In this document: positions 8,257 through 26,716 of the stretch, piece by piece
Layout: each line of letters begins with the position of its first letter
Position numbering within the stretch: position 1 is the first letter of the stretch
IMG/VR virus record: IMGVR_UViG_3300024297_000001
Strand: one strand, 5' to 3'
From: a virus
Taxonomy: Duplodnaviria; Caudoviricetes
DNA: 64,000 bases
Translations under genes and position numbers: made by a program
The notes under the pieces: generated by a model
Seen by the model: only the letters and a program-made list of their open reading frames with translations
Told to the model about the DNA's origin: nothing
Database searches by the model: none

Positions 8257-8498
8257 AAATTAGGTACTATCGAAATATCAAGGGGTGGCGTTGGTTAGGA
8301 TTTTTTCTTGCCATGGCATCTGCTTATATTTTAAGTAGTGGTAATCCTGACTACCAAGTTATGGGTTGGAGTGTTGCATGTTTTAGTTGTGGCATTTGGA
8401 TTTACATGGGTTGGAAAGACGGAGATACACCACGTGCATTGATGGAACTGTTTTATTTGGTACTTGCTATACGTGGAATTATTAACTGGATTCAATGA
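8253..8498 (+). CDS. Small 3-TM membrane protein (half-transporter-like)
   Basis: 81 aa with three hydrophobic segments; pattern similar to 57445 and 58491. Confidence 0.55.
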   Translation: MKIRYYRNIKGWRWLGFFLAMASAYILSSGNPDYQVMGWSVACFSCGIWIYMGWKDGDTPRALMELFYLVLAIRGIINWIQ

Positions 8499-9862
8499 GC
8501 GAAGTAGAAAGAATAAAGCAGATAATGCCAGAGGTCGACAAGATCTCTCCTACCTTCTGCTTGGCTAAATGGCACCACGTAACAATATATTTGCAAACAG
8601 GCGAAACACACAGTTGTTATCACCCAGCACCACATAAGATTCCACTTGAAGGATTAATTGACAATCCAAGTCAACTACACAATACACCGCAAAAGAAACA
8701 AGAACGTAAACAAATGCTTGAAGGCGAAAAGCCAAGCGGTTGTCAATACTGTTGGAATATTGAATGTATGGGTAAAGACTATATTAGTGATAGGCATATT
8801 AAAACAGCAAGTATATACACACCTAAACGTATTGAAGAAATAAAAAGTAATCCATGGGATTATAATATTAATCCAGAATACATTGAAATAAATTTTAGTA
8901 ATGAATGTAATTTTAAATGCGGTTACTGCCATCCTAAGTTTAGCAGTAGATACTATAACGAAATTAAAAAAGAAGGTCCATATACAGATGTATCTGCACA
9001 CCGTAATGACATTGATTGGTTTGAATTATATGAAGAAGAAACTAATCCTTATGTAGAAGCATGGTGGAAGTGGTGGCCAGAAGTTAGTAAGACACTAAAC
9101 ATCTTACGTGTTACAGGCGGCGAACCTTTAATGCACAAAAGTACTTGGCGTTTGTTTGACGAACTTGAAGCAAATCCTAAACCACATATTCAAATTGAAG
9201 TAAACAGTAACATGGGTGTTAAGGAATCTCTTGTACACAAACTTGTAGAACGTGTAAAAGAACTTAAAGCAAAGAACTGTATAAGAAGTTTCAAATTATA
9301 CACAAGCATAGATACTTGGGGACCTAAAGCAGAATACACAAGACGTGGATTAGATATTGAACTATGGGAAAAGAATTTAGATTACTATCTAACAGAACTT
9401 GGTTATCCTGTAACGTTTATGATTACATTTAACTTGTTTGCTGTAACGAGTTTTGATTTATTGCTTAATAAAATACTTGAATGGCGTAAGAAGTACACAA
9501 GATCTAATGCAGGTGTACAATGGCAAAACATTAGATTTGATACTCCTTATCTAAAAGAGCCAATACAGTTTGACATGAACATATTACCTAAGGATCAGTT
9601 TGTTCCGTACATGACAAGGCACCTACAGTTCATCGGAGACAACGTTGATGACAATGACCGCCATAAGTTTAGTTTGTTGGAGTATGAGCGTTTTAGACGT
9701 GTTGTAGACTATATGCGTACAACTACTTACGATGATAAGAAGTTAGCAATAGGACACAAAACTTTTTATAATTGGTTTACGCAATATGATAAACGTAGTG
9801 GTAGTAGTATTGTTAAAACGTTTCCGGAACTTAAAGAATTTTATGATTCTTGTAGATCTTAG
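8495..9862 (+). CDS. Radical SAM protein with N-terminal twitch/SPASM-like Cys region
   Basis: CNFKCGYC motif, TGGEP, and N-terminal CLAKW...SCYH...CQYC. Confidence 0.9.
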   Translation: MSEVERIKQIMPEVDKISPTFCLAKWHHVTIYLQTGETHSCYHPAPHKIPLEGLIDNPSQLHNTPQKKQERKQMLEGEKPSGCQYCWNIECMGKDYISDRHIKTASIYTPKRIEEIKSNPWDYNINPEYIEINFSNECNFKCGYCHPKFSSRYYNEIKKEGPYTDVSAHRNDIDWFELYEEETNPYVEAWWKWWPEVSKTLNILRVTGGEPLMHKSTWRLFDELEANPKPHIQIEVNSNMGVKESLVHKLVERVKELKAKNCIRSFKLYTSIDTWGPKAEYTRRGLDIELWEKNLDYYLTELGYPVTFMITFNLFAVTSFDLLLNKILEWRKKYTRSNAGVQWQNIRFDTPYLKEPIQFDMNILPKDQFVPYMTRHLQFIGDNVDDNDRHKFSLLEYERFRRVVDYMRTTTYDDKKLAIGHKTFYNWFTQYDKRSGSSIVKTFPELKEFYDSCRS

Positions 9863-10850
9863 AAGCAAGAATTTGATTGTGTGTTAACACAGCATTCATT
9901 TCATTTAACATTTCTTTACAGTCATCAATACTTAATAACTTAATGCTATCTAACAAGTAACGTATTTTGTTCATACGTTTTGTATGATCTTCTTCAGTAT
10001 CGTAACTTTCGTCCCAAGTAAATGTTTTAAATCCTAACTCACGAATGTATTCTAATGTATAAGGTGGTGCAACGCAAACAAAAGGACGTTTATGTATCAT
10101 TGCGTTAACAGTTTTCTCACTAAAGTTTCCTGTAGGCTGATAGAAACGTGTTTCGTTTGCTACAACGCAAAAACTTTTTTCATAGTAAGCAGATAAACTT
10201 GCTGGACCGTTTAGTTGTCCTATAGGCCATTTTTTATGTGCAGGGTCTATACTTTGTAATTCTGTATCAATGCTTAATGCTGGATCACTAAATGCCCAAC
10301 TATAGTAACCTGGTGTATCTTGTAAGTGTTCTATTATTAAACGTCTGTGTAAACTATAACGCCAATTAGGACAAATAAAGTGTTTATCAATATTGTTGTT
10401 AACATTAACAATACCGCCGTTGAATTGATTGCGTAAAAATATATCAAAGCATTTAAGTTCAAACGGATAGTAGTCTATATGTTTGTTTACATTGTAATCA
10501 CAAGTGTATACAGTAATTTCTGCATTTAATTTTTTACTAAATTCTAAAATACTATCTAATTCATCAGCACGTAATTTTTCTCCGCCTTGAAATTCGCTAA
10601 AGAAATCTCTGTTATGCTTTTTACCATCTTCGTATAATGTTAATGGTTCGTACAAATATATGTTAAGTTTTTTAAGTTTCTTTAACATTTTAGGAGTAAG
10701 AGGAAACTTATCAAAGTCTATATTATTTGTACCTGTGTATATAATAAAAGGATCTTTAGGAAACCAATGTTCAAATAGTTCAGTAAACATTGAACCTAAC
10801 TTTGTAGATTTTACAGGAAGGTTACCCCAGAATATATCTTGTTTGAACAT
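9831..10850 (-). CDS. GT-B/exostosin-like glycosyltransferase-like protein
   Basis: C-terminal FCVVANET...FSEKT..AMIHKRPFV...L..LGFKTF.WDESYD resembles GT-B (GT10/GT47-like) nucleotide-binding halves. Confidence 0.45.
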   Translation of the reverse strand: MFKQDIFWGNLPVKSTKLGSMFTELFEHWFPKDPFIIYTGTNNIDFDKFPLTPKMLKKLKKLNIYLYEPLTLYEDGKKHNRDFFSEFQGGEKLRADELDSILEFSKKLNAEITVYTCDYNVNKHIDYYPFELKCFDIFLRNQFNGGIVNVNNNIDKHFICPNWRYSLHRRLIIEHLQDTPGYYSWAFSDPALSIDTELQSIDPAHKKWPIGQLNGPASLSAYYEKSFCVVANETRFYQPTGNFSEKTVNAMIHKRPFVCVAPPYTLEYIRELGFKTFTWDESYDTEEDHTKRMNKIRYLLDSIKLLSIDDCKEMLNEMNAVLTHNQILASKIYKNHKIL

Positions 10851-11344
10851 TACCAGTAAGTGCCGGTGATTTGTAAAGTGTATCTTGGATCAACTCCAAT
10901 GTTGCTGGCCGCATGTGGAGTATCAGGTTGCCATAAAACATATTCACCTGCTTTCCAATTTACAAATGCTTTGCTATCTACTTCAAAGTAGTGTCCTGGT
11001 TTCCAGTCTTCTAAGAAAACAATAGCACGTCTTACTTCGTTACGTTCTTTGTTAAACACTTTACAATATGTATTATAATGATCAACGTGTGTAGGCATGA
11101 TATCTAACGTATCCATTTTGTAAAATACAAAACCAGGATTATGTAAATTAAGTAATTGTGCTACTTGAATTGCATAGTCAGGCATTGTATTACGACTGTC
11201 ATACATTTTGCCTGTTGTATTTTCATGCGTATAGCCTTGCTTACGCCAAGCGTCAGACTCAGCACCTGTAATAGGTTGTCTAACGTAATTGAAGTATTTG
11301 TATCCTTCGTCCCATAATACAGGACATTTACCTTTAGTCCACAT
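10850..11344 (-). CDS. 2OG-Fe(II) oxygenase/cupin
   Basis: PTHVD (HxD) ... PHAASN (distal His) ... RYTLQIT. Confidence 0.7.
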   Translation of the reverse strand: MWTKGKCPVLWDEGYKYFNYVRQPITGAESDAWRKQGYTHENTTGKMYDSRNTMPDYAIQVAQLLNLHNPGFVFYKMDTLDIMPTHVDHYNTYCKVFNKERNEVRRAIVFLEDWKPGHYFEVDSKAFVNWKAGEYVLWQPDTPHAASNIGVDPRYTLQITGTYW

Positions 11345-12302
11345 CTCTTTTTGTATCCAATGTTACGCAGTGAAATCCACCGCCAAGTGTACGTTGATGT
11401 CGCATTGGTAACATAGCACACTCTATTCCTTGGTGCTCAAGAAGGTGTCTTAGATCCTCTTGGTGTTCTTCTAATGCAACTAACTTTGTATTTACACTAA
11501 ACAAGTTCATGTTAATCCACGTACTTGCATTACACCATTTAGGATAGTGGCCAATGTCTACAGGTTCAGGACACCATATAATATCCCAATTTCTAAATGG
11601 CTCAGGTAAATCTTCTCTTACTTTTATTCTACTTGGATTAACAAGTAATAACCCTTCACGTAAAAATGCAACAGTACTGTCAATATGCATGTAACTATAA
11701 ACATTTTGTAATAGGTTTACTTTAGCAGTAGCACCTAAGGCACCTTGTAATAAATTTGCACCTAACTTGTTTGCACTATTACTAACCAAGTATAACAGTT
11801 GGTCGTTTGCACGAATTATATTCGCGGCATCAAAAGCAGGACTGTATTCATTAAGTGCTAAAATATCTTTATTGCCAATACATTCTTTATTGTATAATTG
11901 ACTTTCGTTGAAGCAACGTATTTCTTTTGGGTTATCTAAATGATCTTCAAATGCTCTCCACTCGCCTTTTCTTGCACGTATAGGCATTGGTGTAGCAAGT
12001 GTTAGGTTACCATGTATAAACACACTGTCTCGAGGACAGTAATTATAGTAATGACAATCTGTTTTCTCTGGACGTACAACTTCTACACTTTCTGCTTGTA
12101 AAAATTTTACAAATGTTTCTAAGTCTTCATTTGCTTCTTCAATAACTTTACTTGGGTAAGGACCTTTGATAATTTCTGTTTCGTCTTTTTTATCTGCAAA
12201 ATTAACACAACGTAAACTAATATCTATATCATAAGGTATCTTGGCTTTGTCTGCAATGCCAACAATTACTTTTCTAAGTTGTCCCCATTCGTTTGTGTTC
12301 AT
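11334..12302 (-). CDS. Amidinotransferase (AGAT/StrB1-like)
   Basis: NEWGQLRKVIVG, CPRD, FDAAN (Asp), MHIDST (His) and GGGFHCVTLD (Cys) give the full pentein catalytic triad. Confidence 0.9.
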   Translation of the reverse strand: MNTNEWGQLRKVIVGIADKAKIPYDIDISLRCVNFADKKDETEIIKGPYPSKVIEEANEDLETFVKFLQAESVEVVRPEKTDCHYYNYCPRDSVFIHGNLTLATPMPIRARKGEWRAFEDHLDNPKEIRCFNESQLYNKECIGNKDILALNEYSPAFDAANIIRANDQLLYLVSNSANKLGANLLQGALGATAKVNLLQNVYSYMHIDSTVAFLREGLLLVNPSRIKVREDLPEPFRNWDIIWCPEPVDIGHYPKWCNASTWINMNLFSVNTKLVALEEHQEDLRHLLEHQGIECAMLPMRHQRTLGGGFHCVTLDTKRDVD

Positions 12303-12883
12303 TTAAAAACCTTCATGTCTGGAAGATATGGATAATCATTACTGCTCCATTCCTTTGTTGGTTCAGTAACGTTTTCTAATTTTTCAATACCAAGTTGTGC
12401 AGTTTCTGGAGTCATATAATAATGATATCCTATGTATTGAATGTCTTGTTCGCCCCATGGCTTATCATCTGTTCTACCATCATGTGCCATTGCTTTTAAT
12501 ACTGCATAGTCTGTTTCATTAGGACATAATATTGCACCGCCTCTACCTAAACTTAACATTTTCTTATGTTGAAAACTCAAACACTTATAGGTGTTAGGCA
12601 TGTAACTATTACGTTTGAAACTAACAGCACCGTCTATAATTCTTGTACCACCTAATACATATTCTTCATTCCAAGAAGCATCAACAAACTCCCAATCAAT
12701 GTTTAACTTCATTAATGTAAATGGAATACTAATATACGTTCTTGTAGGTATCTTTACGTGGTTAGGCTTTAGATATCGTAAACAAAGTTCAATAGAATGG
12801 GTACAACTATCCGTTGCAACGGCAAATGGTGCATTATAATACTCTGCAATGCGTTTTTCGAACTCTTTCACGGTTTCAAACAT
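12299..12883 (-). CDS. Short DegT/DnrJ/EryC1/StrS-family PLP aminotransferase
   Basis: FEKRIAEY...ATDSCT, IIDGA, LSFQHKKMLSLGRGGAI (Schiff-base Lys region), GYHYYMT; about 194 aa. Start placed at ATG 12883. Confidence 0.8.
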   Translation of the reverse strand: MFETVKEFEKRIAEYYNAPFAVATDSCTHSIELCLRYLKPNHVKIPTRTYISIPFTLMKLNIDWEFVDASWNEEYVLGGTRIIDGAVSFKRNSYMPNTYKCLSFQHKKMLSLGRGGAILCPNETDYAVLKAMAHDGRTDDKPWGEQDIQYIGYHYYMTPETAQLGIEKLENVTEPTKEWSSNDYPYLPDMKVFK

Positions 12884-12888
12884 ACACA

Positions 12889-12896
12889 TATTTATA
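12889..12896 (-). promoter_or_regulatory. Perfect T4 late box TATAAATA, 5 nt before ATG 12883
   Basis: Plus strand tatttata at 12889-12896; divergent intergenic region. Confidence 0.65.
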
Positions 12897-12905
12897 TGCG
12901 TAGTT

Positions 12906-12913
12906 AATAAGTA
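12906..12913 (+). promoter_or_regulatory. Late-box variant AATAAGTA, 5 nt before GTG 12919
   Basis: Same N5 spacing as the other boxes, but with TAAGTA instead of TAAATA. Confidence 0.35.
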
Positions 12914-12918
12914 ATAGT

Positions 12919-12984
12919 GTGAGTGAAATTATTAAATTATCCGTATGGTCTGAAAAATATCAAAATATTGGAGAGAACGCATGA
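12919..12984 (+). CDS. Putative 21-aa leader peptide MSEIIKLSVWSEKYQNIGENA
   Basis: GTG start 5 nt after a late-like box; the TGA stop overlaps the ATG of 12981 (ATGA). Not in the ORF track. Confidence 0.3.
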   Translation: MSEIIKLSVWSEKYQNIGENA

Positions 12985-14165
12985 ATATAGGATTTTTAGG
13001 AGTCGGTAAACTCGGTATACCATGTGCAGAAGAAATAGTCAAAAAAGGTCATACAGTTTTTGGTTATGATACTGCTAAAATTACCAGCGAATTAATTATA
13101 CAAAAGCCTACAATCAAAGATGCAGTAACTGGTGCAGACATTGTGTTTGTTGCAGTACCAACACCGCATCACGAAGATTATGACGGTAAACGTCCTACAA
13201 GTCATTTACCACCAAAAGATTTTAATTACGATATTGTAAATGATGTTCTTGAAGAAGCAGACATGCATATGACAAAGGATCAATTGCTTGTTCTTATCAG
13301 TACAGTATTACCAGGTACAACACGTAGAGAATTTGTACCACGTGTTACACATACACGTTTTGTATATAACCCATATCTAATTGCAATGGGTACTGTGGGT
13401 TGGGATATGATTAATCCTGAGATGGTAATGATAGGAACTGACGATGGTAGCGAAACAGGTGATGCAAAACAATTAAAAGAATTTTATCAAAGCATTATGG
13501 AAAATGACCCACGCTATGTTATAGGAACATATGACGAGTGCGAATGTATCAAAGTGTTTTACAATACATTTATTTCTACTAAATTAAGTTTTGTTAACAT
13601 GATTCAAGATGTTGCACAACGTCAAGGTAACATTAATGTTGACGTAGTAACAAAAGCCTTAGCAGAAAGTACACAACGTATAATGAGTCCTGCATATATG
13701 ACAGCAGGCATGGGTGATGGTGGTAGTTGTCACCCAAGAGATAATATTGCTTTACGTTACATGGCAAAAGAATTAAATTTAGAATATGATATTTTTGATA
13801 ACATTATGAAAGCAAGAGAAATACAAGCAAAAAATCTTGCAAAGTTTGTTGTTGAAACAAAAAAGAAATATGGCGGAAGTATTTTCTTAAATGGTATATC
13901 ATACAAACCAGGCGTACCTTACATTGACGGAAGTTATGCACTACTTGTTGATCACTATGTTAAGGAACTTGGACACAGTATGATTTACATTGATCCACTT
14001 GCAAGTGAAATGCCAAGTAGTCAAGTAAGCCTTGGAGGTATTATTTTACTTGCACACCCAACCCCGTACTTAGAATACTCAACAGACTCAGTGTTTATTG
14101 ATCCGTGGAGAAAAATGAAACCTAATTCTAAGTATCTTGTCATACAATACGGAAACACAAGATAA
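12981..14165 (+). CDS. UDP-glucose/GDP-mannose dehydrogenase family protein (non-canonical motifs)
   Basis: GVGKLG Rossmann motif, VAVPTP, LISTVLPGTT, IKVFYNTFISTK and GDGGSCHPRD (catalytic Cys); C-terminal domain present. Confidence 0.9.
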   Translation: MNIGFLGVGKLGIPCAEEIVKKGHTVFGYDTAKITSELIIQKPTIKDAVTGADIVFVAVPTPHHEDYDGKRPTSHLPPKDFNYDIVNDVLEEADMHMTKDQLLVLISTVLPGTTRREFVPRVTHTRFVYNPYLIAMGTVGWDMINPEMVMIGTDDGSETGDAKQLKEFYQSIMENDPRYVIGTYDECECIKVFYNTFISTKLSFVNMIQDVAQRQGNINVDVVTKALAESTQRIMSPAYMTAGMGDGGSCHPRDNIALRYMAKELNLEYDIFDNIMKAREIQAKNLAKFVVETKKKYGGSIFLNGISYKPGVPYIDGSYALLVDHYVKELGHSMIYIDPLASEMPSSQVSLGGIILLAHPTPYLEYSTDSVFIDPWRKMKPNSKYLVIQYGNTR

Positions 14166-14977
14166 TGTTTTACACTAAGGATCATCCGTTATTATATTTT
14201 CCTGAAATAGCAGGTAAAAGTTTACAATGGTATTGTGGTGACGATTTAGAAAACTACAATCAGTACAACAAAGAAGGTTGGGAGTATCATAATACTGCTG
14301 ATAAGTTAGAATACAACTTTAACAGTCTTGGATATCGTACAAAAGAATTAACGGGTCTTAATAACGATTATATTTTAGTGTTCGGGTGCAGTTATACTGA
14401 AGGCGTAGGTTTATACGAAGAACAAATATGGTGTAATAAAATTAGCAAGATGTATGATATAGACGTAATAAACTTAGCCAAAGCAGGTACAGGACCTGAT
14501 ATTGTTGCGTTAAATACACAATTATTCATAAAGAACAAATTTGTACTTCCTAAATGCGTCTTAATTCAATGGCCACAATCGTCACGAAAAAGTTTTGCAT
14601 ACACTGAAAAGAAATTGTTTACTAATCAAATAAGATTAGAAGATAGGAATATTATGTTCCTTCCAGACGGAACTGAAGAAGAATACGAAATGATGGACTC
14701 AGTTTGGTACCACAAACGTTGGGTTCATGAACAAGGACAAATGAATTATGAGAATTTGTATCATCTAAATAGTGTAAACAATATATGGAACGCACTTGGT
14801 GTGCCTGTACATAATTGGACATTCCAAGCAGACTTTAAAACAAAGTATGACAAAGATATGGTACAAACAGTAAAAACAAAGATGACTGGTCGTGCAAGAG
14901 ATGAGGCCCATGACGGAGAAAGCATACACGACCAAGTTGTCGCACAAATAAAGGATAAAGTAAAATGTATGATATAG
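14165..14977 (+). CDS. SGNH hydrolase/acyltransferase-like protein
   Basis: LVFGCSYTEG (block I Ser), NLAKAG, and C-terminal RDEAHDG (DxxH). Confidence 0.55.
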   Translation: MFYTKDHPLLYFPEIAGKSLQWYCGDDLENYNQYNKEGWEYHNTADKLEYNFNSLGYRTKELTGLNNDYILVFGCSYTEGVGLYEEQIWCNKISKMYDIDVINLAKAGTGPDIVALNTQLFIKNKFVLPKCVLIQWPQSSRKSFAYTEKKLFTNQIRLEDRNIMFLPDGTEEEYEMMDSVWYHKRWVHEQGQMNYENLYHLNSVNNIWNALGVPVHNWTFQADFKTKYDKDMVQTVKTKMTGRARDEAHDGESIHDQVVAQIKDKVKCMI

Positions 14978-15654
14978 TCTTCATAAGTTACGGCGAACCA
15001 AACGCTGATGAAAACTGGAAACATATTAAGCAAATGTTTCCTATGGCGAAACGTGTAAAAGATGTTAAAGGTTTACATCAAGCACACATTGCCGCGGCTA
15101 AAAAATGTTTTACAAAAATGTTCTGGGTTATTGATGCTGATGCAGAGTTAATGCCAGACTTTGATTTTAATTTTGAGGTTTCCGAGTGGGATTTAGAAAC
15201 AGTGCATGTATGGCGAAGTATAAATCCGATCAACGACTTGGAATACGGGTATGGAGGTGTAAAGTTATTACCGCGATCACTCACACTGAACATGGACACT
15301 TCCATGCCCGACATGACTACAAGTATCAGTGATAAGTTCAAAGCAATGCCAGAGATAAGTTGCGTAACAGGATTTAACACTGATCCTTTGAGTACTTGGC
15401 GTGGAGCATTTAGAGAATGTGCAAAATTAGCAAGTAAAACTATTCCAGGACAAGTAGATGAAGAAACAGAGAAGCGTTTGGAAACATGGCTTACTGTTGG
15501 TGCTGAAAGACAGTACGGAAAGATTGCAATGCACGGAGCGGCATGTGGTAAGCAATTTGGAGAACACTATAGAGGCAATGTAGAAGCACTTGCAATGTTA
15601 AATGATTTTGATTATTTAGAAGAGGAGTTTAATGAACACAAAGATTCCTTTTAA
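14965..15654 (+). CDS. GT-A-like (GT2-like) protein
   Basis: IVFISYGEPNADENW...AHIAAAK...WVIDAD (DxD); paralog of 7369..8256. Confidence 0.55.
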   Translation: MYDIVFISYGEPNADENWKHIKQMFPMAKRVKDVKGLHQAHIAAAKKCFTKMFWVIDADAELMPDFDFNFEVSEWDLETVHVWRSINPINDLEYGYGGVKLLPRSLTLNMDTSMPDMTTSISDKFKAMPEISCVTGFNTDPLSTWRGAFRECAKLASKTIPGQVDEETEKRLETWLTVGAERQYGKIAMHGAACGKQFGEHYRGNVEALAMLNDFDYLEEEFNEHKDSF

Positions 15655-17938: not shown

Positions 17939-18552
17939 TTCACAGACTTACACAATACGGTCAACTTATAGAATTAGACATCACAACAGATGCTGAGGCA
18001 ATGATTGCTTGGGCAAATGAATTTGATTGGGTAAAATATAATCCACGTAAGGATATTAATCGTTGGGGTTTAAGTATTACAAGTTTAGATGGCGGTATTA
18101 CAGGTGTACCAGACTTAGATAGTTTGTATGAATATAACAAAGAAAACAAAACAGGATATAACGAAAAAGATTTTAATGTGCCTACACCAGTTCTAAACAA
18201 ACAAATAGAAGAAGTGTTAGAACCTTGGAAGGACAATTACTATAGAACACACTTTTTAAAGTTTGGTCCAGGCGGATTCTTTCCTCCACATAGAGATTGG
18301 AACTACAGTTCAGGTAGAGCAGACAGTTTTAGATTGATAATGCCTTTGCGTAATGTTAATCCACCTTATTTTAATTTTGTATTAGAAGATAAAATGCTAC
18401 ATTGGGAAGTAGGTAGACTATACTTTGTAGATACTTTAAAAATGCACTACCTATTCAATAGTGGCTTTAATGATAGTTACTGGTTAATTGTAAATGTTGA
18501 TCTAAATCCAGACACTGTTAATGCTACACTTGGGAGATTAAATCAAAAGTAA
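17935..18552 (+). CDS. 2OG-Fe(II) oxygenase (Asp/Asn beta-hydroxylase-like)
   Basis: GGFFPPHRD (HxD) ... DTLKMHYLFN. Confidence 0.75.
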   Translation: MIHRLTQYGQLIELDITTDAEAMIAWANEFDWVKYNPRKDINRWGLSITSLDGGITGVPDLDSLYEYNKENKTGYNEKDFNVPTPVLNKQIEEVLEPWKDNYYRTHFLKFGPGGFFPPHRDWNYSSGRADSFRLIMPLRNVNPPYFNFVLEDKMLHWEVGRLYFVDTLKMHYLFNSGFNDSYWLIVNVDLNPDTVNATLGRLNQK

Positions 18553-19550
18553 TGTATAACTACGAAGATATTACATCAATACATTTAGAAGTAACTTCTA
18601 AGTGCCAAGCAAGATGTCCTATGTGTCCAAGACGATTACATGGCGGACCGTTACTTGAAGGCTTAGACTTGGAAGAAATATCTATTGACACTTTTAAGGA
18701 ATGGTTTCCTGTAAGTTTTGTACAACAATTAAAGTTTCTTAATATGTGTGGTAACTTGGGCGATCCTATTGTTGCAAAAGACACATTAGAAATTTTTAGA
18801 TATCTACGTGAAAACAATTCAGAAATGACATTGCAAATGCACACTAACGGAAGTGGTAGAACTAAAGAGTGGTGGCGCGGACTTGCAGAACTAAAAGTAA
18901 AAGTTGTGTTTGGCATTGACGGACTTGGAGATACTCATGCACTATACAGAATAAACACTAACTGGGAAAAGATTATTAACAATGCATCACAGTTTATACA
19001 CGTAGGCGGAGATGCACGTTGGGACATGCTTGTATTCAAACATAACGAACACCAAGTTGATACTTGTGAAAAGATGAGCAAGGAGTTAGGATTCAAAGGA
19101 TTTAGTATTAAACATACAACAAGATTCAAAGACGGTAGGTTTGATGTGCTTGATGACAACTACAAAATCACACATACCTTATTGCCGTCAAGTAAGAGTC
19201 TTGAAATGATTGCTCCGGCAAAAGAAGCACAACAAGAAAAGTTGCCTTTAATTACTTGCAAAGCAAAACAAGATAATCAAATGTACATAAGTGCAAATGG
19301 TAATGTTAGTCCTTGCTGTTGGTTAGACTTAGAATGGTTACCACAGCACAGTGGTAGTAGAATAGATTACATGGTAAAGATTGGTAAGTTTCCTAACTTG
19401 CATAAACAATCATTTAAAGAAATATTTGACAGCAACTTCTTTAGTAGTATTAGTGGTTGTTGGACTTCAACAGGACTTGCAGAATGTTCTAAACAGTGTG
19501 GAAAGTTTGACAAACTAAATGCACAGTTTGAAAGGAAGGAACATGTCTAA
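18552..19550 (+). CDS. Radical SAM protein with C-terminal twitch/SPASM domain
   Basis: CQARCPMC; C-terminal C...YISANGNVSPCC...C.KQC; paralog of 25672..26658. Confidence 0.9.
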   Translation: MYNYEDITSIHLEVTSKCQARCPMCPRRLHGGPLLEGLDLEEISIDTFKEWFPVSFVQQLKFLNMCGNLGDPIVAKDTLEIFRYLRENNSEMTLQMHTNGSGRTKEWWRGLAELKVKVVFGIDGLGDTHALYRINTNWEKIINNASQFIHVGGDARWDMLVFKHNEHQVDTCEKMSKELGFKGFSIKHTTRFKDGRFDVLDDNYKITHTLLPSSKSLEMIAPAKEAQQEKLPLITCKAKQDNQMYISANGNVSPCCWLDLEWLPQHSGSRIDYMVKIGKFPNLHKQSFKEIFDSNFFSSISGCWTSTGLAECSKQCGKFDKLNAQFERKEHV

Positions 19551-20847
19551 AACATTTTGTCCTTTACCTTGGATACATTTAGCAACAAGACCTAACGGCG
19601 ATGTTAGAGTTTGTTGTACTGCTAATGCATCAGGTGCAGGAGTTGAAGATGACAAGACAGCAGGACTTGTTAAGAAAGACGGAGTAAGCATGAACTTGCG
19701 TGAACACACTATTGAAGAAGTATGGAATAGTGAACACATGCGTCGAACAAGATTGCAAATGTTAAATGATGAGATACCAGCAAGTTGTCGTAAATGTTTT
19801 GCAGAAGAAAGCAAAGGTATTGTTAGCAAACGTCAATGGGAAACAGAAGTATGGAAACAACGTTTAGACATAGATAGTATTGTAGCAAAAACAGGAGAAC
19901 AAGGTGACTTACCTGTAAATGTTCCTTACTTTGATTTACGTTTAGGTAATGTATGTCAACTTAAATGTGTTATGTGTAGTCCACATGATTCAAGTAGTTG
20001 GATTAAGGAATGGAAACTAAATCATCCTAAGTATACAAACAAAGATTTAATTAACGATCAAAGTTGGAATGAAGACTTTGATTACACTTGGTATAAGAAA
20101 GGATCGTTTCTTGATTCTATGAAAGACCAAGCACAGCACATCAAAGAATTATATTTTGCAGGTGGCGAGCCTCTAATGATTCCTGAACACTATAACATAT
20201 TACAATTTATGGTTGATGAAGGACATGCTGAAAATTGTTGTATTAGATATAACAGTAATGGACTTGTATTGAAACCTGAACTGTTTGTGTTATGGCAACA
20301 CTTTAAAGAAGTAACATTTAACTTTAGTATTGATGCATATGGTGAAAAGAATGATTACATACGTCACCCAAGCAAATGGGCAGACATTGAAAAGAATATA
20401 AAAATACTTGATTCAAGTAATGCAAATATTAATATTAACATAGCGTCAGCAGTACAGATGTTTAATGTAGCACATCTTGATGAACTTGCTGAATGGAAAC
20501 TTGATCAAAAGTTTAGTAAAGTAAATGCACAAACACAAGGCGGTATGATTAGTACACACCTTGTATACTTTCCGTCTTACTTAAATGTACGAGTGTTACC
20601 AGAAGAGTATAAACAGTTTGCTAAAAAACGCATTGAAGCATTTATAGAAAGACAAAAATTTAACACACAATGGATTCAACACCCAATGGGCCAAGTACGT
20701 TGGGAAGGTTTAATAAAATATATGATGGAAGAAGACTGGTCAGCAAAGTTACCTCAAACACTTGATTACATAAGAGTACTTGATGAACAACGTGGATTAG
20801 ACTACACTAAAATATTTCCTGAACTTGGAGAGGCTTTATGCAAGTAG
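19543..20847 (+). CDS. Radical SAM protein with N-terminal twitch domain
   Basis: MSKTFCPLPW...NGDVRVCC...CRKC, then CQLKCVMC and AGGEP. Confidence 0.9.
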   Translation: MSKTFCPLPWIHLATRPNGDVRVCCTANASGAGVEDDKTAGLVKKDGVSMNLREHTIEEVWNSEHMRRTRLQMLNDEIPASCRKCFAEESKGIVSKRQWETEVWKQRLDIDSIVAKTGEQGDLPVNVPYFDLRLGNVCQLKCVMCSPHDSSSWIKEWKLNHPKYTNKDLINDQSWNEDFDYTWYKKGSFLDSMKDQAQHIKELYFAGGEPLMIPEHYNILQFMVDEGHAENCCIRYNSNGLVLKPELFVLWQHFKEVTFNFSIDAYGEKNDYIRHPSKWADIEKNIKILDSSNANININIASAVQMFNVAHLDELAEWKLDQKFSKVNAQTQGGMISTHLVYFPSYLNVRVLPEEYKQFAKKRIEAFIERQKFNTQWIQHPMGQVRWEGLIKYMMEEDWSAKLPQTLDYIRVLDEQRGLDYTKIFPELGEALCK

Positions 20848-21428
20848 GATTAACAGGACACAAAGCAGGAATTGGAAAAGCATTTTACGAATTATACAAA
20901 CATGATTATGTTTGGGTACTGCTTGACAGAAATGAAGAATGGGCATGTGATGTAAGAGATACTGGAAAAGCATTTGATCATTTACGTGATGTTGATATCT
21001 TTATTAACAATGTTTACTGTGAAAATACACAAAGTACACTGTTTGATATGTGGAGTGTGTTTAATCAAGACAAAGACAAGTTATGTGTAAACATAGGATC
21101 AGTTGTTGCAAATACTACAAATGATATTTTCTTTGAAGAAGATTATTACAAAAACAAATTAGAACTACACACAAAAACACATCAATGGAATAGTTTAAGA
21201 CCTGAGTGTAAAGCAAGTCTTGTTGTTCCTGCATTTTGTGATACAGACTTTGCAGGCAAAGATGTTTATAAAAGCAAAGAAGTATTAGAAGAACTAAGAA
21301 CAAAGTTTCATTATTTTAAAAAACAACACAAATTATTAAAACCAGAATCAGTTGCAAAAGTAATTAAGTTTATAATTGATGAATGGGAAAGTGGAAACCA
21401 TATCAATACATTAGAGATGAGAAATTGA
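20838..21428 (+). CDS. Short-chain dehydrogenase/reductase
   Basis: TGHKAGIG (TGxxxGxG), FINN, NIGS, YYKNK (YxxxK). Confidence 0.75.
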   Translation: MQVGLTGHKAGIGKAFYELYKHDYVWVLLDRNEEWACDVRDTGKAFDHLRDVDIFINNVYCENTQSTLFDMWSVFNQDKDKLCVNIGSVVANTTNDIFFEEDYYKNKLELHTKTHQWNSLRPECKASLVVPAFCDTDFAGKDVYKSKEVLEELRTKFHYFKKQHKLLKPESVAKVIKFIIDEWESGNHINTLEMRN

Positions 21429-22327
21429 AATTAGAATATGTAGACATAACGAAAAAAGATTGGTTCCTTGTTAGTTGGACTCTCAGCAACAAGTGTAACT
21501 ATCGTTGTGAATACTGTCCAGACATTTTACATAACGGAAGTACAGGACAACCTAAATGGGAAACTGTAAAAAACTTTGTTGAAAAATTAAAAGTACCTAA
21601 GACAATGTGTTACAGAATAAGTGGTGGAGAACCTACATACTGGAAACACTTTATTGATCTTGCAAAACTTGTAAAAAAACAAGGACACTATTTTAGTTTT
21701 GTCACAAACGGAAGTCAACGTGTAAAGTATTACAAAGAAATTAGTAATTACACAGACGGATTTATTATTTCGTATCATCCACAATACGCAGACGTAGAAC
21801 ATTTTATTGAAGTAGCAAACAGTGTTGACTGTCCCGTTGCTGTACACCTAATGATGGTACCAGAAAAATTTAATGAGTTAGAAAGCATTGCTAAACAGTT
21901 ATATGAAGGTAGTGATAATCTTACAGTTGAGCCTAAGGTGATCGTAGACAAAACAAGTCAAGAACACGTAACAAATGAAGTTACAGTTTACACACCAGAG
22001 CAAAAAGATTTGATCAATAACTGGAAGTACAAACGAGAGTTTGACTTTAGTAATTTACACCGCGGAGAGTTACTACTAAATAATTCAGTAGTTACTGCTA
22101 ACGAAATCCTACTGCAAGAAAAAAATATGTTTAGTGGTTGGAAATGTTGGGCAGGTATTGATGGAGTAAATGTAGATATGTGGGGTAACCTATATAGAGC
22201 AGATTGTCAATTCGGCGGTGCGTTAGGTAACCTTGAACGTTATAAATTACCCACTGAGCCAATAGTATGTGGTAAAAGTGTGTGTAGTTGTTTAAGTGAT
22301 ATATTCATTAGGAAGGAAGTTGGATGA
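21383..22327 (+). CDS. Radical SAM protein with C-terminal Cys cluster
   Basis: CNYRCEYC, SGGEP, GWKCWAG...C...CGKSVCSC. True start may be TTG 21425. Confidence 0.9.
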   Translation: MGKWKPYQYIRDEKLKLEYVDITKKDWFLVSWTLSNKCNYRCEYCPDILHNGSTGQPKWETVKNFVEKLKVPKTMCYRISGGEPTYWKHFIDLAKLVKKQGHYFSFVTNGSQRVKYYKEISNYTDGFIISYHPQYADVEHFIEVANSVDCPVAVHLMMVPEKFNELESIAKQLYEGSDNLTVEPKVIVDKTSQEHVTNEVTVYTPEQKDLINNWKYKREFDFSNLHRGELLLNNSVVTANEILLQEKNMFSGWKCWAGIDGVNVDMWGNLYRADCQFGGALGNLERYKLPTEPIVCGKSVCSCLSDIFIRKEVG

Positions 22328-22575
22328 CAAACGTAACACGCAAAGATGCATATAGAGTTTTTTGGTTAGTAAAAGGTCACTTTAATGCAACAGAAGATTG
22401 TATCTTTGATTGTTATGATAGTTATTTTAAAAGAGTTTGGTACATGGAAGAAACATATTTACATGAAGAAGGTTTTGAAGAAGCATACGCAAAGGTAACA
22501 AACACATATACTCAACGTGCTTGGGACAGAACAGTTGGTTATGGAACAGTGCCAGAGGAATACAAATGCGAATAG
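22324..22575 (+). CDS. Hypothetical protein (83 aa)
   Basis: ORF overlapping both neighbours. Confidence 0.55.
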   Translation: MTNVTRKDAYRVFWLVKGHFNATEDCIFDCYDSYFKRVWYMEETYLHEEGFEEAYAKVTNTYTQRAWDRTVGYGTVPEEYKCE

Positions 22576-23114
22576 TTGTAACAGGTAATCCTAAGTATGA
22601 AGGATTATGCTCAGGTATATGGGAAGCCTACAGTCGTAATCAAGTAGAATTTATTGGTAGATGGAATGACTGGGATCTTACAGATGCTGACGCAGTAGCA
22701 GAATACGTAAAAGATCATAATGTATTTGTAAACAGTCAATACGGTCCTAATGGCGAACAAGTAGAATTGTTACGTAAGGTATATGAAAAGTTTAATGGTG
22801 AACACATTATTAATATTTCAAGTACAACAAGTTATTGGGGTGACGGTTATAATCCAGGCGACTATCTTAAAAACAAAACTGAACTTGATGAATTAAGTAA
22901 GAAGTATTCACAGTACGGAACATTTGGTAGTAGCAAAATTCGTGTAAGCAATATTGCGTTTGGTCAACTTGCATCACAAACACAATTAGATAAAAGCACT
23001 AATAATAAAATTAGTTTACTTGAAGCAGGTAAACTTGTTAAATGGGTAATTGATAGTCCACGTAGTTACAACTTACACTATATGGCACTTGATCCTATAC
23101 AAAGAGATCTTTAA
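22566..23114 (+). CDS. Short-chain dehydrogenase/reductase-like protein
   Basis: MRIVVTGN, FVNS, IINISS, YLKNK (YxxxK); paralog of 20838. Confidence 0.65.
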   Translation: MRIVVTGNPKYEGLCSGIWEAYSRNQVEFIGRWNDWDLTDADAVAEYVKDHNVFVNSQYGPNGEQVELLRKVYEKFNGEHIINISSTTSYWGDGYNPGDYLKNKTELDELSKKYSQYGTFGSSKIRVSNIAFGQLASQTQLDKSTNNKISLLEAGKLVKWVIDSPRSYNLHYMALDPIQRDL

Positions 23115-24213
23115 GTTCCGGACAAAAATTTAAAACACTTGTATCTCTAATCTTATCTAAATCCTTAGTATAGTTTACAAACATATCTAATAGTTTACTA
23201 TTGTTTTGTTCGTATGTTATGTTAGGCAACTTATGTTTAATGTTGTGTAATATTTCATTAGGCAATACACGTGGATTCAAATAGGCAGGTTGTGCTACAA
23301 CATTATTAAAGTATATACTCCAATTATCTTTTTTGTTAGCATCAAACCAATCTTGTATTTTATCCAAGTGTGAAATGTTATATGCCATTACAGTTACAGC
23401 AATAATAATTCTATCAAAGTCATATTGTTTTAAATTATCATTTAGTTGTTCAAACGTAAAGTTCTTTCCACCTCTAATGTATTCATACAATCCATCAGTA
23501 CCTTCAACACTTACAGTCCATTTAGTTTCGCCATAATGTCTTGCAAGTTCTTGTACTTCCTCATCAACGATCGTACCATTCGTAGTCCAGTCAAGTGTAA
23601 CATTTTTTGCAACTCCTAAGTCTATAAACTTCTGCAATATCTTTTTGTTTGCAGGTTCCATATAAGGCTCTCCGCCTTTAATACTAAGATAACGTAACCC
23701 CATAAACGGAGTAGGATCTTCAAATAGTCTTTGTATTATTTGTTCACTTTTATTAACATATCCAAACTCTGGATTGTCAATTCTTCTATGATATGGGTTA
23801 CCATTTTTTGCAAGTTTCAATTCGTCCTTGACCCAAGCACTTGAATTGATTCCATCGCACATACGGCATTTCAAATTACAAATATTACTCATATTGAACT
23901 CCAAAAATTTGATATCGTGGAAGTTTTTTGAGTAATCATTATTGGATCCTTCAAGCATAGGATTCAAAATATCACGGAAGAATAATCTTCGGCTATGACC
24001 TACTGTAGCCTCTTTTAAAGCACATTGTTGGCACTCGGGCGGTAACACTCCATTACGGATACTATCCTTTGTGTATGACGCTGTAAATGCGTTTAAGACG
24101 GTGTTTAAGGGCTCTTGTAGCACGTTTCCGTAGCGGTTTGTGTACACACCATCGGGTACAATATCGCCGTTAAAACGTACCAAAATACTATGCCAAGGTG
24201 CGTAACATTTCAT
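23095..24213 (-). CDS. Radical SAM protein with N-terminal twitch domain
   Basis: MKCYAPW...NGDIVP...CQQC, then CNLKCRMC and KGGEP. Confidence 0.9.
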   Translation of the reverse strand: MKCYAPWHSILVRFNGDIVPDGVYTNRYGNVLQEPLNTVLNAFTASYTKDSIRNGVLPPECQQCALKEATVGHSRRLFFRDILNPMLEGSNNDYSKNFHDIKFLEFNMSNICNLKCRMCDGINSSAWVKDELKLAKNGNPYHRRIDNPEFGYVNKSEQIIQRLFEDPTPFMGLRYLSIKGGEPYMEPANKKILQKFIDLGVAKNVTLDWTTNGTIVDEEVQELARHYGETKWTVSVEGTDGLYEYIRGGKNFTFEQLNDNLKQYDFDRIIIAVTVMAYNISHLDKIQDWFDANKKDNWSIYFNNVVAQPAYLNPRVLPNEILHNIKHKLPNITYEQNNSKLLDMFVNYTKDLDKIRDTSVLNFCPELKDLFV

Positions 24214-24652
24214 CGAATTTCTCTCCAAAAGCAGACCTTAAATCGCTTTCCAATTTATCAAAAACCACATTGGGTTGATACACACCTACATTGTCCCAAT
24301 CAATTAATTCATAGGAATCACCCTGTACAATAATGTTACTGAGTACCCAATCTCCGTGTGCAAATGGTTGTGTTTCATTTATGTTCTGTAAACAAAAGTC
24401 GTATATGCTTTTTACAAATTCAGATGTGTGCGGTAGTGTGTTTGCTACAGTGCCTTCGATAATTTTAGTATCAATAAACATTCTGCCACCTTCAACACCA
24501 TGATTAATAATGTAACCAGGACGCACTTCTTCCATTATATCAATATGGTCGTCAAGCCATTCTTGATTTGTAAAGTCCCATTGCTTACGATAAAAGTTTG
24601 CACCTTTGTAAACACGTCTTAGTTTTTCTTTATTTTCCTTTATTAATTCCAT
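24188..24652 (-). CDS. Minimal APH/choline-kinase-like phosphotransferase
   Basis: AHGDWVLSNII (Brenner HGDxxxxN motif) and LIDWD (metal-binding DxD/DFG equivalent). Confidence 0.7.
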   Translation of the reverse strand: MELIKENKEKLRRVYKGANFYRKQWDFTNQEWLDDHIDIMEEVRPGYIINHGVEGGRMFIDTKIIEGTVANTLPHTSEFVKSIYDFCLQNINETQPFAHGDWVLSNIIVQGDSYELIDWDNVGVYQPNVVFDKLESDLRSAFGEKFDEMLRTLA

Positions 24653-25682
24653 ATGCTTCTGCAACTTCAGGAATGTAATCCTGTATGTGGCATCCTCTTA
24701 ATTTATCAAATGTTTTTATCCAATGTAAAAATGCATTTTGTTGTACTTGATCTGGTTCTTGGTTTACCCAATACTTAAATTTTTCTGGCGAAAACTTTTT
24801 AATTGTATCAGGTGCATTCTTTGAATCAAAGTATGTAGGATGAAAAAGTAAATTATCAAACACATCAAAGTCATTTGTTTTTGCCCATGCAACAATATCA
24901 TTGTAATTATGTAAGTTCATTATTTGTATAGTTGGACCTACACTTTTATATTTTACAAATTCTGCCCAACGTAACATATTTGTTTCTACAGTTTTCCAAT
25001 CACTTCCCCAACGTATGTAATCATTTACTTTACCTATACCGTCAATACTAAAACACATATTAACAGTATCGAAACGTTTTAGTTCTTCATATACATTAGG
25101 ATTAATAATTGTAGCATTAGTATTAAATCTTATTTCAACACTGTTATCTAACTTCTTAAGAAACTTATGTAAGCCTCTTACCATCATAGGTTCGCCACCT
25201 GTTAAGTACACTTCTCTAAGTTCAGGTAAACTTGCAAGGTAATCTCCACGTTCTTCTGTGTACCAATCGTAATTAGGAAACTGTTCATTACCCCAAGGCG
25301 ATTCCATACCTTTTGCAATTAGTTCTTTATGATCCTGATTAACACCGCTTGATGTTGCAGGGTAACACATAGTACACTTTAAATTACAGTTACTACCAAA
25401 ACGTAAATCAAGATGACTTACACCAGGCCCGTATGGTCTTGGTTTTGTACGTTGACTACCTTCACCGGACGCTTCTTGTATTTCGCATTTTTTACAAGCC
25501 TCTGGGAATTCATTATTATCAAACTTTTGAACTGCGTCTTTAAACACTTTACTTTCACGCCATTCTTCTATAGTGTGTGTTTGAATGTTTTCTTTGTTTG
25601 TAGGTTCGTTACTAATACAACACAGACGAAACTCGCCAGAAGTTCTAATGCAAACTTGATGATCTAAATATTTACACTTCAC
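24630..25682 (-). CDS. Radical SAM protein with N-terminal twitch domain
   Basis: KCKYLD...SGEFRLCC...CKKC, then CNLKCTMC and TGGEP. Confidence 0.9.
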   Translation of the reverse strand: MKCKYLDHQVCIRTSGEFRLCCISNEPTNKENIQTHTIEEWRESKVFKDAVQKFDNNEFPEACKKCEIQEASGEGSQRTKPRPYGPGVSHLDLRFGSNCNLKCTMCYPATSSGVNQDHKELIAKGMESPWGNEQFPNYDWYTEERGDYLASLPELREVYLTGGEPMMVRGLHKFLKKLDNSVEIRFNTNATIINPNVYEELKRFDTVNMCFSIDGIGKVNDYIRWGSDWKTVETNMLRWAEFVKYKSVGPTIQIMNLHNYNDIVAWAKTNDFDVFDNLLFHPTYFDSKNAPDTIKKFSPEKFKYWVNQEPDQVQQNAFLHWIKTFDKLRGCHIQDYIPEVAEAYGINKGK

Positions 25683-26658
25683 CGCAAGTTACCTCACATA
25701 TTTTAAATCTATTGTCACTTGGATGATTTAGTATATCGCTTTCAAGTATTTCTTCTAATGGCATATTATTAACATTAGGCCATTCTACACTGTTACATTC
25801 TTTTGCATAAGGACTATCAGGATTTTTAGCATAACGATCACTTAACAAATAGCAACAAGGAAACACTTCGCCTGTATGACTTATTTGTATTTTTTGTTTT
25901 TTCTTCCACTTACAAGTTATACAACCTTTATCAAATCCTTTTTCAATCAAACCTTTTACACGTTTTACATTATCTAACTTACTTGTATCATATGCAATGG
26001 TACGTGCTTGTTCTTTTTTAGTTGCTTTAAAAGTTTCTACTGCTTCATTAATAACACTATCAATAGCAGTAAAAGTATAACCACCATTAATGTCAAAAAC
26101 TTTGAAACCCATGTCTTTGCTTAATTCTTCTGCTTGTTCTATTTGATGTTTGTTATGTTCAAACACAAGCATACGCCAACGTGCAATACCACCTGAGTCT
26201 ATAAATGCTTTTGCATTTTCCATAACACTTTTCCATACCACATGTCGTCTATATAAATGATTAGTATCTTCCAATCCGTCTATGCTAAAGGTAATAATTG
26301 CTTGAGGGAAGCCACTTAAAATTTGTGCTAACATTCTATATAAATTAGGTTTACCTATACCACCATTAGTGTGTATCATAATTTTACATTTTAATTTTTT
26401 TCTTGCATACTCTAATGCAAAAGGTAAATTAGGATTCATAATAGGATCGCCATAAGATCCATTAAAAATTATTTCATCAATTCCTTTAGCATTGTCAACA
26501 ATGTTCTTCCAAGTGTCCATATCCATATGACCAAGAGGCATGTTAGGATTGACTTTTACTCCGTCAATATTCCGTGAGCAGTTACCGCACATAGCATTAC
26601 AATGGCTCGTGAAGTCTACTACAAGTGTCTTTAAGTCCTTTTTTCGTACGAATGGCAT
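25672..26658 (-). CDS. Radical SAM protein with C-terminal twitch/SPASM domain
   Basis: CNAMCGNC, FSIDGLEDTNHLYR, C...ISHTGEVFPCC...CEVTC. Start placed at ATG 26658. Confidence 0.9.
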   Translation of the reverse strand: MPFVRKKDLKTLVVDFTSHCNAMCGNCSRNIDGVKVNPNMPLGHMDMDTWKNIVDNAKGIDEIIFNGSYGDPIMNPNLPFALEYARKKLKCKIMIHTNGGIGKPNLYRMLAQILSGFPQAIITFSIDGLEDTNHLYRRHVVWKSVMENAKAFIDSGGIARWRMLVFEHNKHQIEQAEELSKDMGFKVFDINGGYTFTAIDSVINEAVETFKATKKEQARTIAYDTSKLDNVKRVKGLIEKGFDKGCITCKWKKKQKIQISHTGEVFPCCYLLSDRYAKNPDSPYAKECNSVEWPNVNNMPLEEILESDILNHPSDNRFKICEVTCGEV

Positions 26659-26663
26659 CATAG

Positions 26664-26671: not shown

Positions 26672-26703
26672 GCCAAAAAAGTAGCACTTAATGAACCCTG
26701 GCA

Positions 26704-26711: not shown

Positions 26712-26716
26712 TGAGT

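Follow-up and report, generated by a model that had tools for sequence, protein, structure and literature searches.

The virus record IMGVR_UViG_3300024297_000001 of IMG/VR was analysed over a stretch of 64,000 nucleotides (the window), which carries eight genes for radical S-adenosylmethionine (SAM) enzymes in an island of about 24 kb. The source of the window is an uncultured marine T4-type jumbo phage. An 891-residue protein encoded at 54722–57397 is a T4-type family B DNA polymerase (PHROGs phrog_262, E-value 1e-198), which confirms the viral setting claimed by an earlier sequence-only reading of this DNA. The nearest cultured relatives of the polymerase are those of Sinorhizobium phage Phosso (51% identity), Agrobacterium phage Atu_ph07 (47%) and the Escherichia phage 121Q group (43–44%), and a search of cultured phages for DNA nearly identical to the window found none. 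The radical SAM island is built of tightly overlapping genes (overlaps of 1–46 nt) and continues a run of tail-fibre genes, following without a break from the fibre-type genes at 308–4838. Besides the radical SAM enzymes it encodes two sugar-nucleotide dehydrogenase homologues, a DegT aminotransferase, 2-oxoglutarate (2OG) oxygenases, methyltransferase-, kinase- and dehydrogenase-like proteins, and proteins resembling glycosyltransferases of the GT-A fold.

A six-frame scan of the whole window for open reading frames (ORFs) of at least 100 residues containing C-x3-C-x2-C returned exactly eight, all within 8.5–26.8 kb: 8495–9862, 15632–16591, 18552–19550, 19519/19543–20847 and 21383–22327 on the + strand, and 23095–24228, 24630–25682 and 25672–26754 on the - strand. 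All eight pass the gathering score of Pfam PF04055 (32.8–48 bits versus 29.5). The eight CxxxCxxC radical SAM proteins of the sequence-only reading are thus borne out, as is their division into three subfamilies, here called A (A1–A4), B (B1, B2) and C (C1, C2). BLASTP identities within the groups are 20–25% in A (E-values 2e-6 to 6e-36), 29% in B (1e-37) and 25% in C (9e-17), and between the groups only weak matches of the core were obtained. Within-group identities of 20–29% indicate that the genes are old paralogues and not recent duplicates. The SAM motif is invariantly of the GGEP type in groups A and C and is G-x-x-GDP in group B. Orthologue lengths place the probable true starts of B2 near 26661, of A3 near 24213 and of A2 at 19543.

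None of the eight proteins reaches the cut-off of an NCBIfam equivalog of known function, and all lie far below it (BlsE, TIGR04466, 18 versus 400 bits; MoaA, 33 versus 284; viperin_w_prok, 45 versus 180; sulfatase_rSAM, 28 versus 349); the QueE cut-off was also missed by all eight. The best NCBIfam matches of group C are viperin-like and limited to the N-terminal 90–100 residues. A sequence search of the PDB gave nothing for B2 and only GDGT-MAS, over the core only, for C2; a profile of group A likewise gave core matches only (TigE 8VPO, MoaA and SkfB). The seven-Cys SPASM motif C-x9-15-G-x4-C...C-x2-C-x5-C-x3-C...C is not found in these proteins, groups A and B conserving only 4–5 Cys residues. 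Even so, A2, B1 and B2 pass the Pfam SPASM profile (PF13186), because this profile covers twitch domains too. Family membership, conserved Cys residues, synteny, selection and distribution are direct observations, and all eight proteins are read as functional members of the SPASM/twitch clade. In each of them, a SAM-cleaving [4Fe-4S] cluster probably sits on C-x3-C-x2-C and one auxiliary cluster on a twitch-type domain. This auxiliary domain is N-terminal (permuted) in A1–A4 and C-terminal in B1, B2, C1 and C2.

The four proteins of group A match NCBIfam NF033640 (N_Twi_rSAM) end to end, over model positions 1–398, with a cut-off of 170 bits: A1 (8495–9862, +) at 309.5 bits, A2 (19543–20847, +) at 419.3, A3 (23095–24228 with a probable start near 24213, -) at 217.8 and A4 (24630–25682, -) at 223.2. 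The corresponding scores of B1, B2, C1 and C2 are 58, 48.5, 40.4 and 23.8 bits. A1, which scores 34.5 bits with PF04055, has C22, C41, C83 and C86 ahead of core residues C138/C142/C145, and A2 has C6, G19, C24, C25, C82 and C85 ahead of a core at the same three positions. In A1, A2 and A4 the segment reads C-x12-13-G-x4-C followed 50–60 residues on by C-x2-C, all before the core; the N-terminal twitch of A3 has three Cys residues (C8, C66 and C69). The Pfam SPASM profile passes at A2 residues 14–93 (40.6 bits), stays below its cut-off of 21.5 bits in A4 (20.9 bits, residues 3–67) and A3 (18.0 bits), and gives no match in A1. The sequence-only reading had assigned a Cys-rich segment C..PW...NG....CC...CxxC to all four enzymes and had presented its position before the core as a reversal of the usual order. 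The N-terminal twitch itself stands, being recognized by NF033640 and SPASM, but the motif as written does not hold for A3, which lacks the second Cys, or for A4, which lacks the PW. The permuted order is also real, although its novelty was overstated: since A1–A4 match NF033640 over its full length, theirs is the order by which this curated family is defined, and it is already catalogued.

Five positions of the segment (C6, G19, C24, C82 and C85, in A2 numbering from 19543) are at least 90% conserved across 122 diverse members. The second N-terminal Cys is missing both from A3 and from its orthologue in the related marine contig L001 described below. The auxiliary cluster of MoaA has an open iron site; because A3 keeps three of the four twitch Cys residues, its cluster may have such a site as well, or else a non-Cys ligand. 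An AlphaFold model of A2 (predicted local distance difference test score, pLDDT, 94; predicted template modelling score, pTM, 0.92) supports the reading of the N-terminal segment, with a β-hairpin between C6 and C24 (strands 12–15 and 20–22) and a helix (residues 80–90) that bears C82 and C85. Solved structures superpose on the core of this model only (residues 125–403; BlsE and anSME, both at Z 13.4), because the twitch precedes the core in group A, and a Foldseek search with it gave template modelling (TM) scores of only 0.3–0.36 and no close solved structure. An hhalign comparison of the N-terminal segment of group A with the C-terminal segment of group B aligned the hairpin (probability 73%, E-value 3e-5), which fits the former being a permuted copy of the same module as the latter.

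The family to which group A belongs is large. Its profile matches 34,971 representatives of 50% identity clusters at E ≤ 1e-3 and 6,841 at E ≤ 1e-30, among them many polypeptides of 800–1,400 residues in which two or three N-twitch copies are fused; A2 alone has 3,405 relatives at E ≤ 1e-10. We found no paper on the N-terminal twitch, and among N-twitch radical SAM enzymes we found none whose reaction is known or for which a closely related structure has been solved.

In group B, B1 (18552–19550, +) scores 32.8 bits with PF04055 and 32.4 bits with PF13186, and B2 (25672–26661, -) scores 42.8 and 24.3 bits. The longest ORF of B2 extends to 26754; its orthologues have 327–342 residues, which favours the start near 26661. 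The core Cys residues of B1 are C18/C22/C25, and the group conserves C236, G250, C255, C256, C312 and C316 (B1 numbering), a one-cluster twitch pattern; this Cys set and the PF13186 matches substantiate the C-terminal twitch proposed earlier for group B. C1 (15632–16591, +; PF04055 48 bits; core C34/C38/C41) and its paralogue C2 (21383–22327, +; 43.8 bits) share a C-terminal pattern of C260, C301 and C306 with a fourth Cys near 281–285. Group C had previously been described by its motifs; the grouping holds, but that description omitted this twitch-like Cys domain. The twitch hairpin motif C-x9-15-G-x4-C is present in A1, A2, A4, B1 and B2, and group C was judged by fold alone. The AlphaFold2 model of C1 (pLDDT 87.9) matches EpeE (Z 16.1), BlsE (Z 15.9; residues 21–318, 264 residues aligned), SkfB (Z 15.9) and MoaA (Z 14.8) in VIA-align. 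Because the matches to BlsE and SkfB extend over the full length, the model places group C in the twitch clade as well.

The complete set recurs in related marine phages. In two TARA contigs, L004 (200 kb) and L001 (130 kb), every one of the eight has a one-to-one orthologue, the gene order is unchanged and identities are 57–92%: for A1, 70% in L001; for A3, 80–84%; for A4, 92% in L004; and for C2, 62–81% in the two contigs. The ratios of nonsynonymous to synonymous substitution rates (dN/dS) of the eight genes are 0.06–0.15, rough values with dS near saturation. The eight genes are under purifying selection and are co-inherited as a set; their co-inheritance and order, together with the N-twitch fusions, fit enzymes of one pathway. 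Marine metagenomes contain thousands of A2, C1 and B1 orthologues, and the contigs that bear them reach 405 kb. In IMG/VR, relatives of group A are encoded on at least 573 stretches, with up to 12 C-x3-C-x2-C ORFs in a 21 kb locus.

Within the set, a core cassette can be recognized that consists of the GT-A-like protein encoded at 14965–15654, C1, the methyltransferase-like protein encoded at 17336–17938, B1 and A2. In a second phage lineage, whose A2 is about 42% identical to that of the window, 60 loci contained the GT-like gene in 36 cases (54% identity), C1 in 49 (about 50%), the methyltransferase-like gene in 47, B1 in 52 (37%) and A2 in all 60; the remaining radical SAM genes of this lineage are different paralogues. 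One of its islands, with 12 radical SAM genes, includes an alternative oxidase gene (L061:8070–8675; AOX, E-value 1e-78). As genes for plastoquinol terminal oxidase (PTOX) are well known from cyanophages, the lineage of this contig may be cyanophage-like. Some related islands also encode QueC-like PP-loop ATPases with a C-terminal C-x2-C-W-W-C, and an 830-residue radical SAM/PP-loop fusion (L067:8248–8907, L067:12544–15036 and L001:12926–13612); these are absent from the window and hint at the amidation or thiolation of a carboxylate.

The cassette is also found in predatory bacteria. A scan of species-representative genomes for the A2 orthogroup gave 54 loci, nearly all in Bdellovibrionota and including the cultured Bdellovibrio sp. 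HCB2-146. Among 40 Bdellovibrionota loci, A2 is present in all 40 (about 44% identity), B1 in 33 (37%), C1 in 31 (about 50%), the GT-like gene in 22 (40%) and the methyltransferase-like gene in 18. HCB2-146 interleaves orthologues of B1, C1, A2 and A1 (the last 39% identical) with four to five PF00535 glycosyltransferases and a GNAT protein. Glycosyltransferase family 2 (GT2) genes occur in 13 of the 54 bacterial loci, and a bacterial triple-fused N-twitch enzyme adjoins PMT_2, GT2, GT1 and DegT genes. Among cultured phages, Ralstonia phage RsoM2USA encodes an orthologue of A1 over its full length (gene 202; 37% identity), and Vibrio phage K566 has several N-twitch genes. Because orthologues beyond the phage lineage of the window were found only for A2, B1, C1 and A1, the eight-gene set looks like a conserved core with lineage-specific additions and not a fixed eight-step line.

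In HCB2-146 (GCA_047345725.1; L104/L147), the cluster is flanked by a 1,959-residue Peptidase_S74 protein of the endosialidase chaperone, phage-fibre type (locus 17278–21377), an arrangement that mirrors the fibre-then-island order of the phage. Of the 54 bacterial loci, just three have a relative of this protein near the cassette, and none of the viral loci has one, so a general fibre link was dropped. In a quick tree of the A2 orthogroup (support as Shimodaira–Hasegawa-like approximate likelihood ratios, SH-aLRT, only; midpoint-rooted; every second viral row, rows below 38% identity and rows with fewer than 380 aligned residues left out), the clade that includes the window is viral and has 20 rows, and a second viral clade stands beside Bacteriovoracaceae inside the Bdellovibrionota group (SH-aLRT 96). 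As the root is a midpoint and paralogue outgroups have long branches, we claim no direction of transfer from this tree. Two contigs from metagenome-assembled genomes (MAGs), L125 (labelled Rickettsiales MED657, 12 radical SAM ORFs) and L126 (Gammaproteobacteria MED685, seven), also lie inside the viral clade; L125 is almost identical to the IMG/VR contig L061, and both look like phage contigs misbinned into bacterial MAGs.

The remaining genes of the locus are described in the order in which they lie. Directly upstream of the island and in the same direction (+) are three fibre-type virion genes (308–2392, 2426–3904 and 3918–4838), with gaps of 13–33 nt to the next genes. The second matches the tail fiber protein family phrog_19602 (E-value 2.9e-16), the N-termini of the first two match the virion structural protein family phrog_14394, and the third has no match in PHROGs. 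They are followed by two paralogous genes (5206–6027 and 6020–6835, +) whose products have D-x-D-like motifs and no Pfam or NCBIfam match; that they are transferases is only a guess. The second is a member of phrog_1903 (function unknown), and homologues of the pair with about 40% identity occur in 6–9 of 60 second-lineage loci. The product of 7369–8256 (+) can be aligned with the family of the GT-A-like protein encoded at 14965–15654 and is a paralogue of it, being 35% identical to the L004 and L001 orthologues of that protein. Between this gene and A1 lies a translationally coupled ORF for 81 hydrophobic residues (8253–8498, +), with a weak match to PnuC/nicotinamide mononucleotide (NMN) transporters (E-value 1.4e-3) and no homologue in the related loci examined.

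After A1, an accessory module on the opposite strand (9831–12889, -) encodes two proteins without assignment, a 322-residue protein and a short DegT-type aminotransferase (12299–12889; PF01041, E-value 2.9e-16); the first three have no family match, and an amidinotransferase label given earlier to the 322-residue protein finds no support in Pfam or NCBIfam. The module is present in L004 at 62–79% identity and is replaced in L001. A UDP-glucose/GDP-mannose dehydrogenase-family enzyme (12981–14165, +; PF00984, E-value 4e-18; PF03721, 1e-14) has orthologues of 68–80% identity in L001 and L004. The GT-A-like gene 14965–15654 (+) opens the core cassette, and its homologues usually abut the A2 orthologue; D59 is invariant in the family, and the protein atlas offers leads to GT2, GT92 and CgtA, with scores under 0.9. 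Its assignment as a glycosyltransferase is only suggestive. In other phage lineages its domain is fused into proteins of 984–1,288 residues (L067:325–3279, L069:1294–4941 and L030:259–4125), whose partners might disclose the target; in the one fusion scanned, that of L067, the remaining parts have no Pfam match. Behind C1 lies an accessory gene for a second, shorter UDP-glucose/GDP-mannose dehydrogenase-family protein (16588–17340, +; PF00984, E-value 5e-24), without an orthologue in L001 or L004. The class I methyltransferase-like protein of the cassette (17336–17938, +) is assigned from a protein-atlas lead only (Methyltransf_31 on 21% of one viral cluster, score 0.96) and has no Pfam match, and an oxygenase of the 2OG/Fe Asp/Arg β-hydroxylase family (17935–18552, +; PF05118, E-value 3.9e-5) precedes B1.

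The product of 20838–21428 (+) resembles short-chain dehydrogenases weakly (sub-threshold NCBIfam matches to short-chain dehydrogenases/reductases, SDRs, E-value about 1e-3), and that of 22566–23114 (+), Rossmann-like by eye, has no Pfam match and has 69–81% identical orthologues in L001 and L004. A small kinase-like protein (24188–24664, -) carries only the catalytic-loop motif of APH/choline kinases; its matches to PF01636 (E-value 0.006) and to the NCBIfam GntI and APH models are all below cut-off. The island ends at 26720–29436 (+) with an oxygenase gene reaching to 27433 (PF05118, E-value 1.1e-14), a gene for a 485-residue protein without assignment (27417–28874) and one for a 198-residue protein of the same kind. 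The 485-residue protein has an 84% identical orthologue in L004 and viral neighbours in the protein atlas, one related cluster of which carries Asp_Arg_Hydrox. In L001 only, the island is closed by a flavodoxin-like gene, and no Fe–S assembly or reductant gene was found among ten further ORFs of the window scanned at 28.8–54 kb. Elsewhere in the window, on the - strand, lie two more 2OG-Fe(II) oxygenase genes (PF13759; 36203–36817 and 39085–39813), one for an NAD-dependent sugar epimerase/dehydratase (PF01370, E-value 4.5e-20; 52349–53086) and one for a staphylococcal-nuclease homologue (35416–35868). The T4 late-promoter motif TATAAATA occurs at two sites against 8.6 expected, which is silent on the timing of expression. 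Two marine RNA-library studies contain short exact contigs over 24–27 of 30 island bins; these are at most a weak hint of transcription, because such contigs may derive from carried-over DNA.

We give a probability of about one half to the island performing oxygen-independent radical tailoring of a sugar, a sugar nucleotide or a glycan. The argument is drawn from context: the dehydrogenases and the DegT aminotransferase in the window, the GT2 genes near the bacterial cassettes, and BlsE as a fold neighbour. From these we infer the chemistry, a sugar substrate and its target as follows. Each enzyme would generate a 5'-deoxyadenosyl radical and take a hydrogen from the substrate, upon which the auxiliary cluster would serve as electron acceptor or as an anchor for the substrate. 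Reactions like those of BtrN or BlsE would be expected: oxidation, epimerization, dehydration, decarboxylation or C–C coupling. The core cassette would carry out the conserved steps, and A1, A3, A4, B2 and C2 would add more lineage-restricted ones; a coupled pathway is hinted at by the fusions of two or three N-twitch copies and by the radical SAM/PP-loop fusion. The sugar or glycan would be made late, beside the fibre genes, and its product would end up on a surface, whether that of the virion (fibres or capsid) or that of the infected cell (envelope), by transfer to a structure there.

Several observations weigh against this assignment. Solved enzymes share less than 20% identity with the radical SAM proteins of the window, none of which reaches the cut-off of a characterized sugar-acting family (for BlsE, the 18 versus 400 bits given above), and C1 is matched best in fold by EpeE, which epimerizes peptides and is tied here with BlsE. 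Proteins are frequent substrates of PF05118 oxygenases. For the GT-A-like protein of the core cassette, no match was found in Pfam, PHROGs or the PDB, and hhalign against a six-sequence GT2 alignment gave a probability of only 31% (E-value 5e-4, over the G..A(H/R)..A...DxD region). Canonical GT2 genes were found in none of 79 viral loci with a crude hidden Markov model. In a complete Bdellovibrionales chromosome (L120), the cassette is bare (two radical SAM genes, the GT-like gene and A2) amid housekeeping genes with no sugar gene nearby; therefore, a sugar substrate would need to be a common metabolite. A bolder version, which we hold only tentatively and think somewhat unlikely, is that the core cassette rearranges a common sugar nucleotide by a multi-step radical route into an undescribed class of sugar, attached to the surface fibres of phage or predator for recognition or shielding, the N-terminal twitch being a new mechanistic subclass.

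The same bare cassette of L120, lacking sugar-nucleotide genes, would suit a direct modification of tail fibres or other virion proteins, in which the radical SAM enzymes introduce epimerizations, cross-links or Cβ oxidations, the 2OG hydroxylases, the methyltransferase and the kinase-like protein add further marks, and the sugar enzymes glycosylate the modified residues. The contiguity of the island with the fibre genes and its two PF05118 genes of the Asp/Arg β-hydroxylase family would be explained as well, as would EpeE (Z 16.1), SkfB, CteB and anSME being among the nearest folds and the large Peptidase_S74 protein flanking the HCB2-146 cluster. However, no N-terminal peptide-recognition domain is seen in the eight enzymes: ahead of the core, Pfam finds no domain in either group B or group C and only the twitch in group A, with no dedicated search for RiPP recognition elements (RREs) run. 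No conserved precursor-like small ORF was noticed either, the small ORFs of the window, L001 and L004 having no obvious mutual similarity. A fibre-like neighbour is found in only three of 54 bacterial loci, whereas sugar-nucleotide dehydrogenases, DegT and GT2 recur around the family. We regard protein modification as unlikely.

A free small molecule, for example one like an aminocyclitol or an aminoglycoside, is quite improbable as the product of the island. Twitch enzymes such as BtrN do work in aminoglycoside pathways, and both the DegT-type aminotransferase of the accessory module and the kinase-like protein with its weak APH and GntI similarity would have a place in such a pathway. Yet that module is missing in L001, the amidinotransferase call lacks Pfam and NCBIfam support, the kinase and SDR matches do not reach their cut-offs, genes for export or resistance were not seen, and the GT-like genes and the adjacency to fibre genes point to a polymer or virion target. 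Hypermodification of nucleotides or DNA bases together with the phage's 7-deazaguanine genes 15–25 kb away is a very remote prospect. In its favour are the QueC-like PP-loop proteins and a class-III aminotransferase in related islands and the viperin-like N-terminal matches of group C. The link to that deazaguanine island was rejected, since the L001 aminotransferase is just 22% identical to that of the window's deazaguanine island and the window has no PP-loop gene. Further points against this reading are that the radical SAM genes form an island of their own, next to the fibre genes, and that the Bdellovibrionota cassettes lie among glycosyltransferases.

Sugar or glycan tailoring remains our preferred reading. 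The N-twitch family is very large and abundant in ocean phages. Islands with 8–12 oxygen-sensitive Fe–S enzymes in oxic seawater presumably bring an important gain, likely at the level of host recognition or the surface. Entry points are the four- to five-gene core, the cultured HCB2-146 that carries this core, and the cultured phage RsoM2USA with its A1 orthologue.

Multi-radical-SAM gene sets of phages are already known and uncharacterized, and the window is a well-preserved, intact eight-gene example. A marine T4-like environmental genome with 12 radical SAM genes and Fe–S carrier genes has been reported (Nishimura et al., 2017; PMC5332604), and pelagimyophages have been noted to carry radical SAM cassettes in their host recognition cluster, near the tail fibres (Zaragoza-Solas et al., 2020; PMC7029224). 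Both describe the same phenomenon and count or mention the genes; function, families, the permuted twitch, the core cassette and the Bdellovibrionota link are not part of these accounts. With respect to NF033640 (N_Twi_rSAM), A1–A4 are full members that nothing structural sets apart, A3 being a three-Cys variant. The sugar-acting enzymes BtrN, BlsE and SpeY (and also DesII and AprD4) share the core fold and a single auxiliary-cluster domain with the window enzymes, which lie here in a sugar-nucleotide-like neighbourhood, and BlsE ranks first or joint first among the structural matches of A2 (Z 13.4) and C1 (Z 15.9). They differ in sequence (13–16% identity, with NCBIfam scores far below the cut-offs) and in that the twitch of group A precedes the core. 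Fold and a weak resemblance in sequence also put the maturases anSME, SkfB, CteB, EpeE/YydG and AlbA into one clade with the window enzymes, but their seven-Cys two-cluster motif and recognition domain were not found in the latter, which also have no conserved precursor-like ORF that we noticed beside them.

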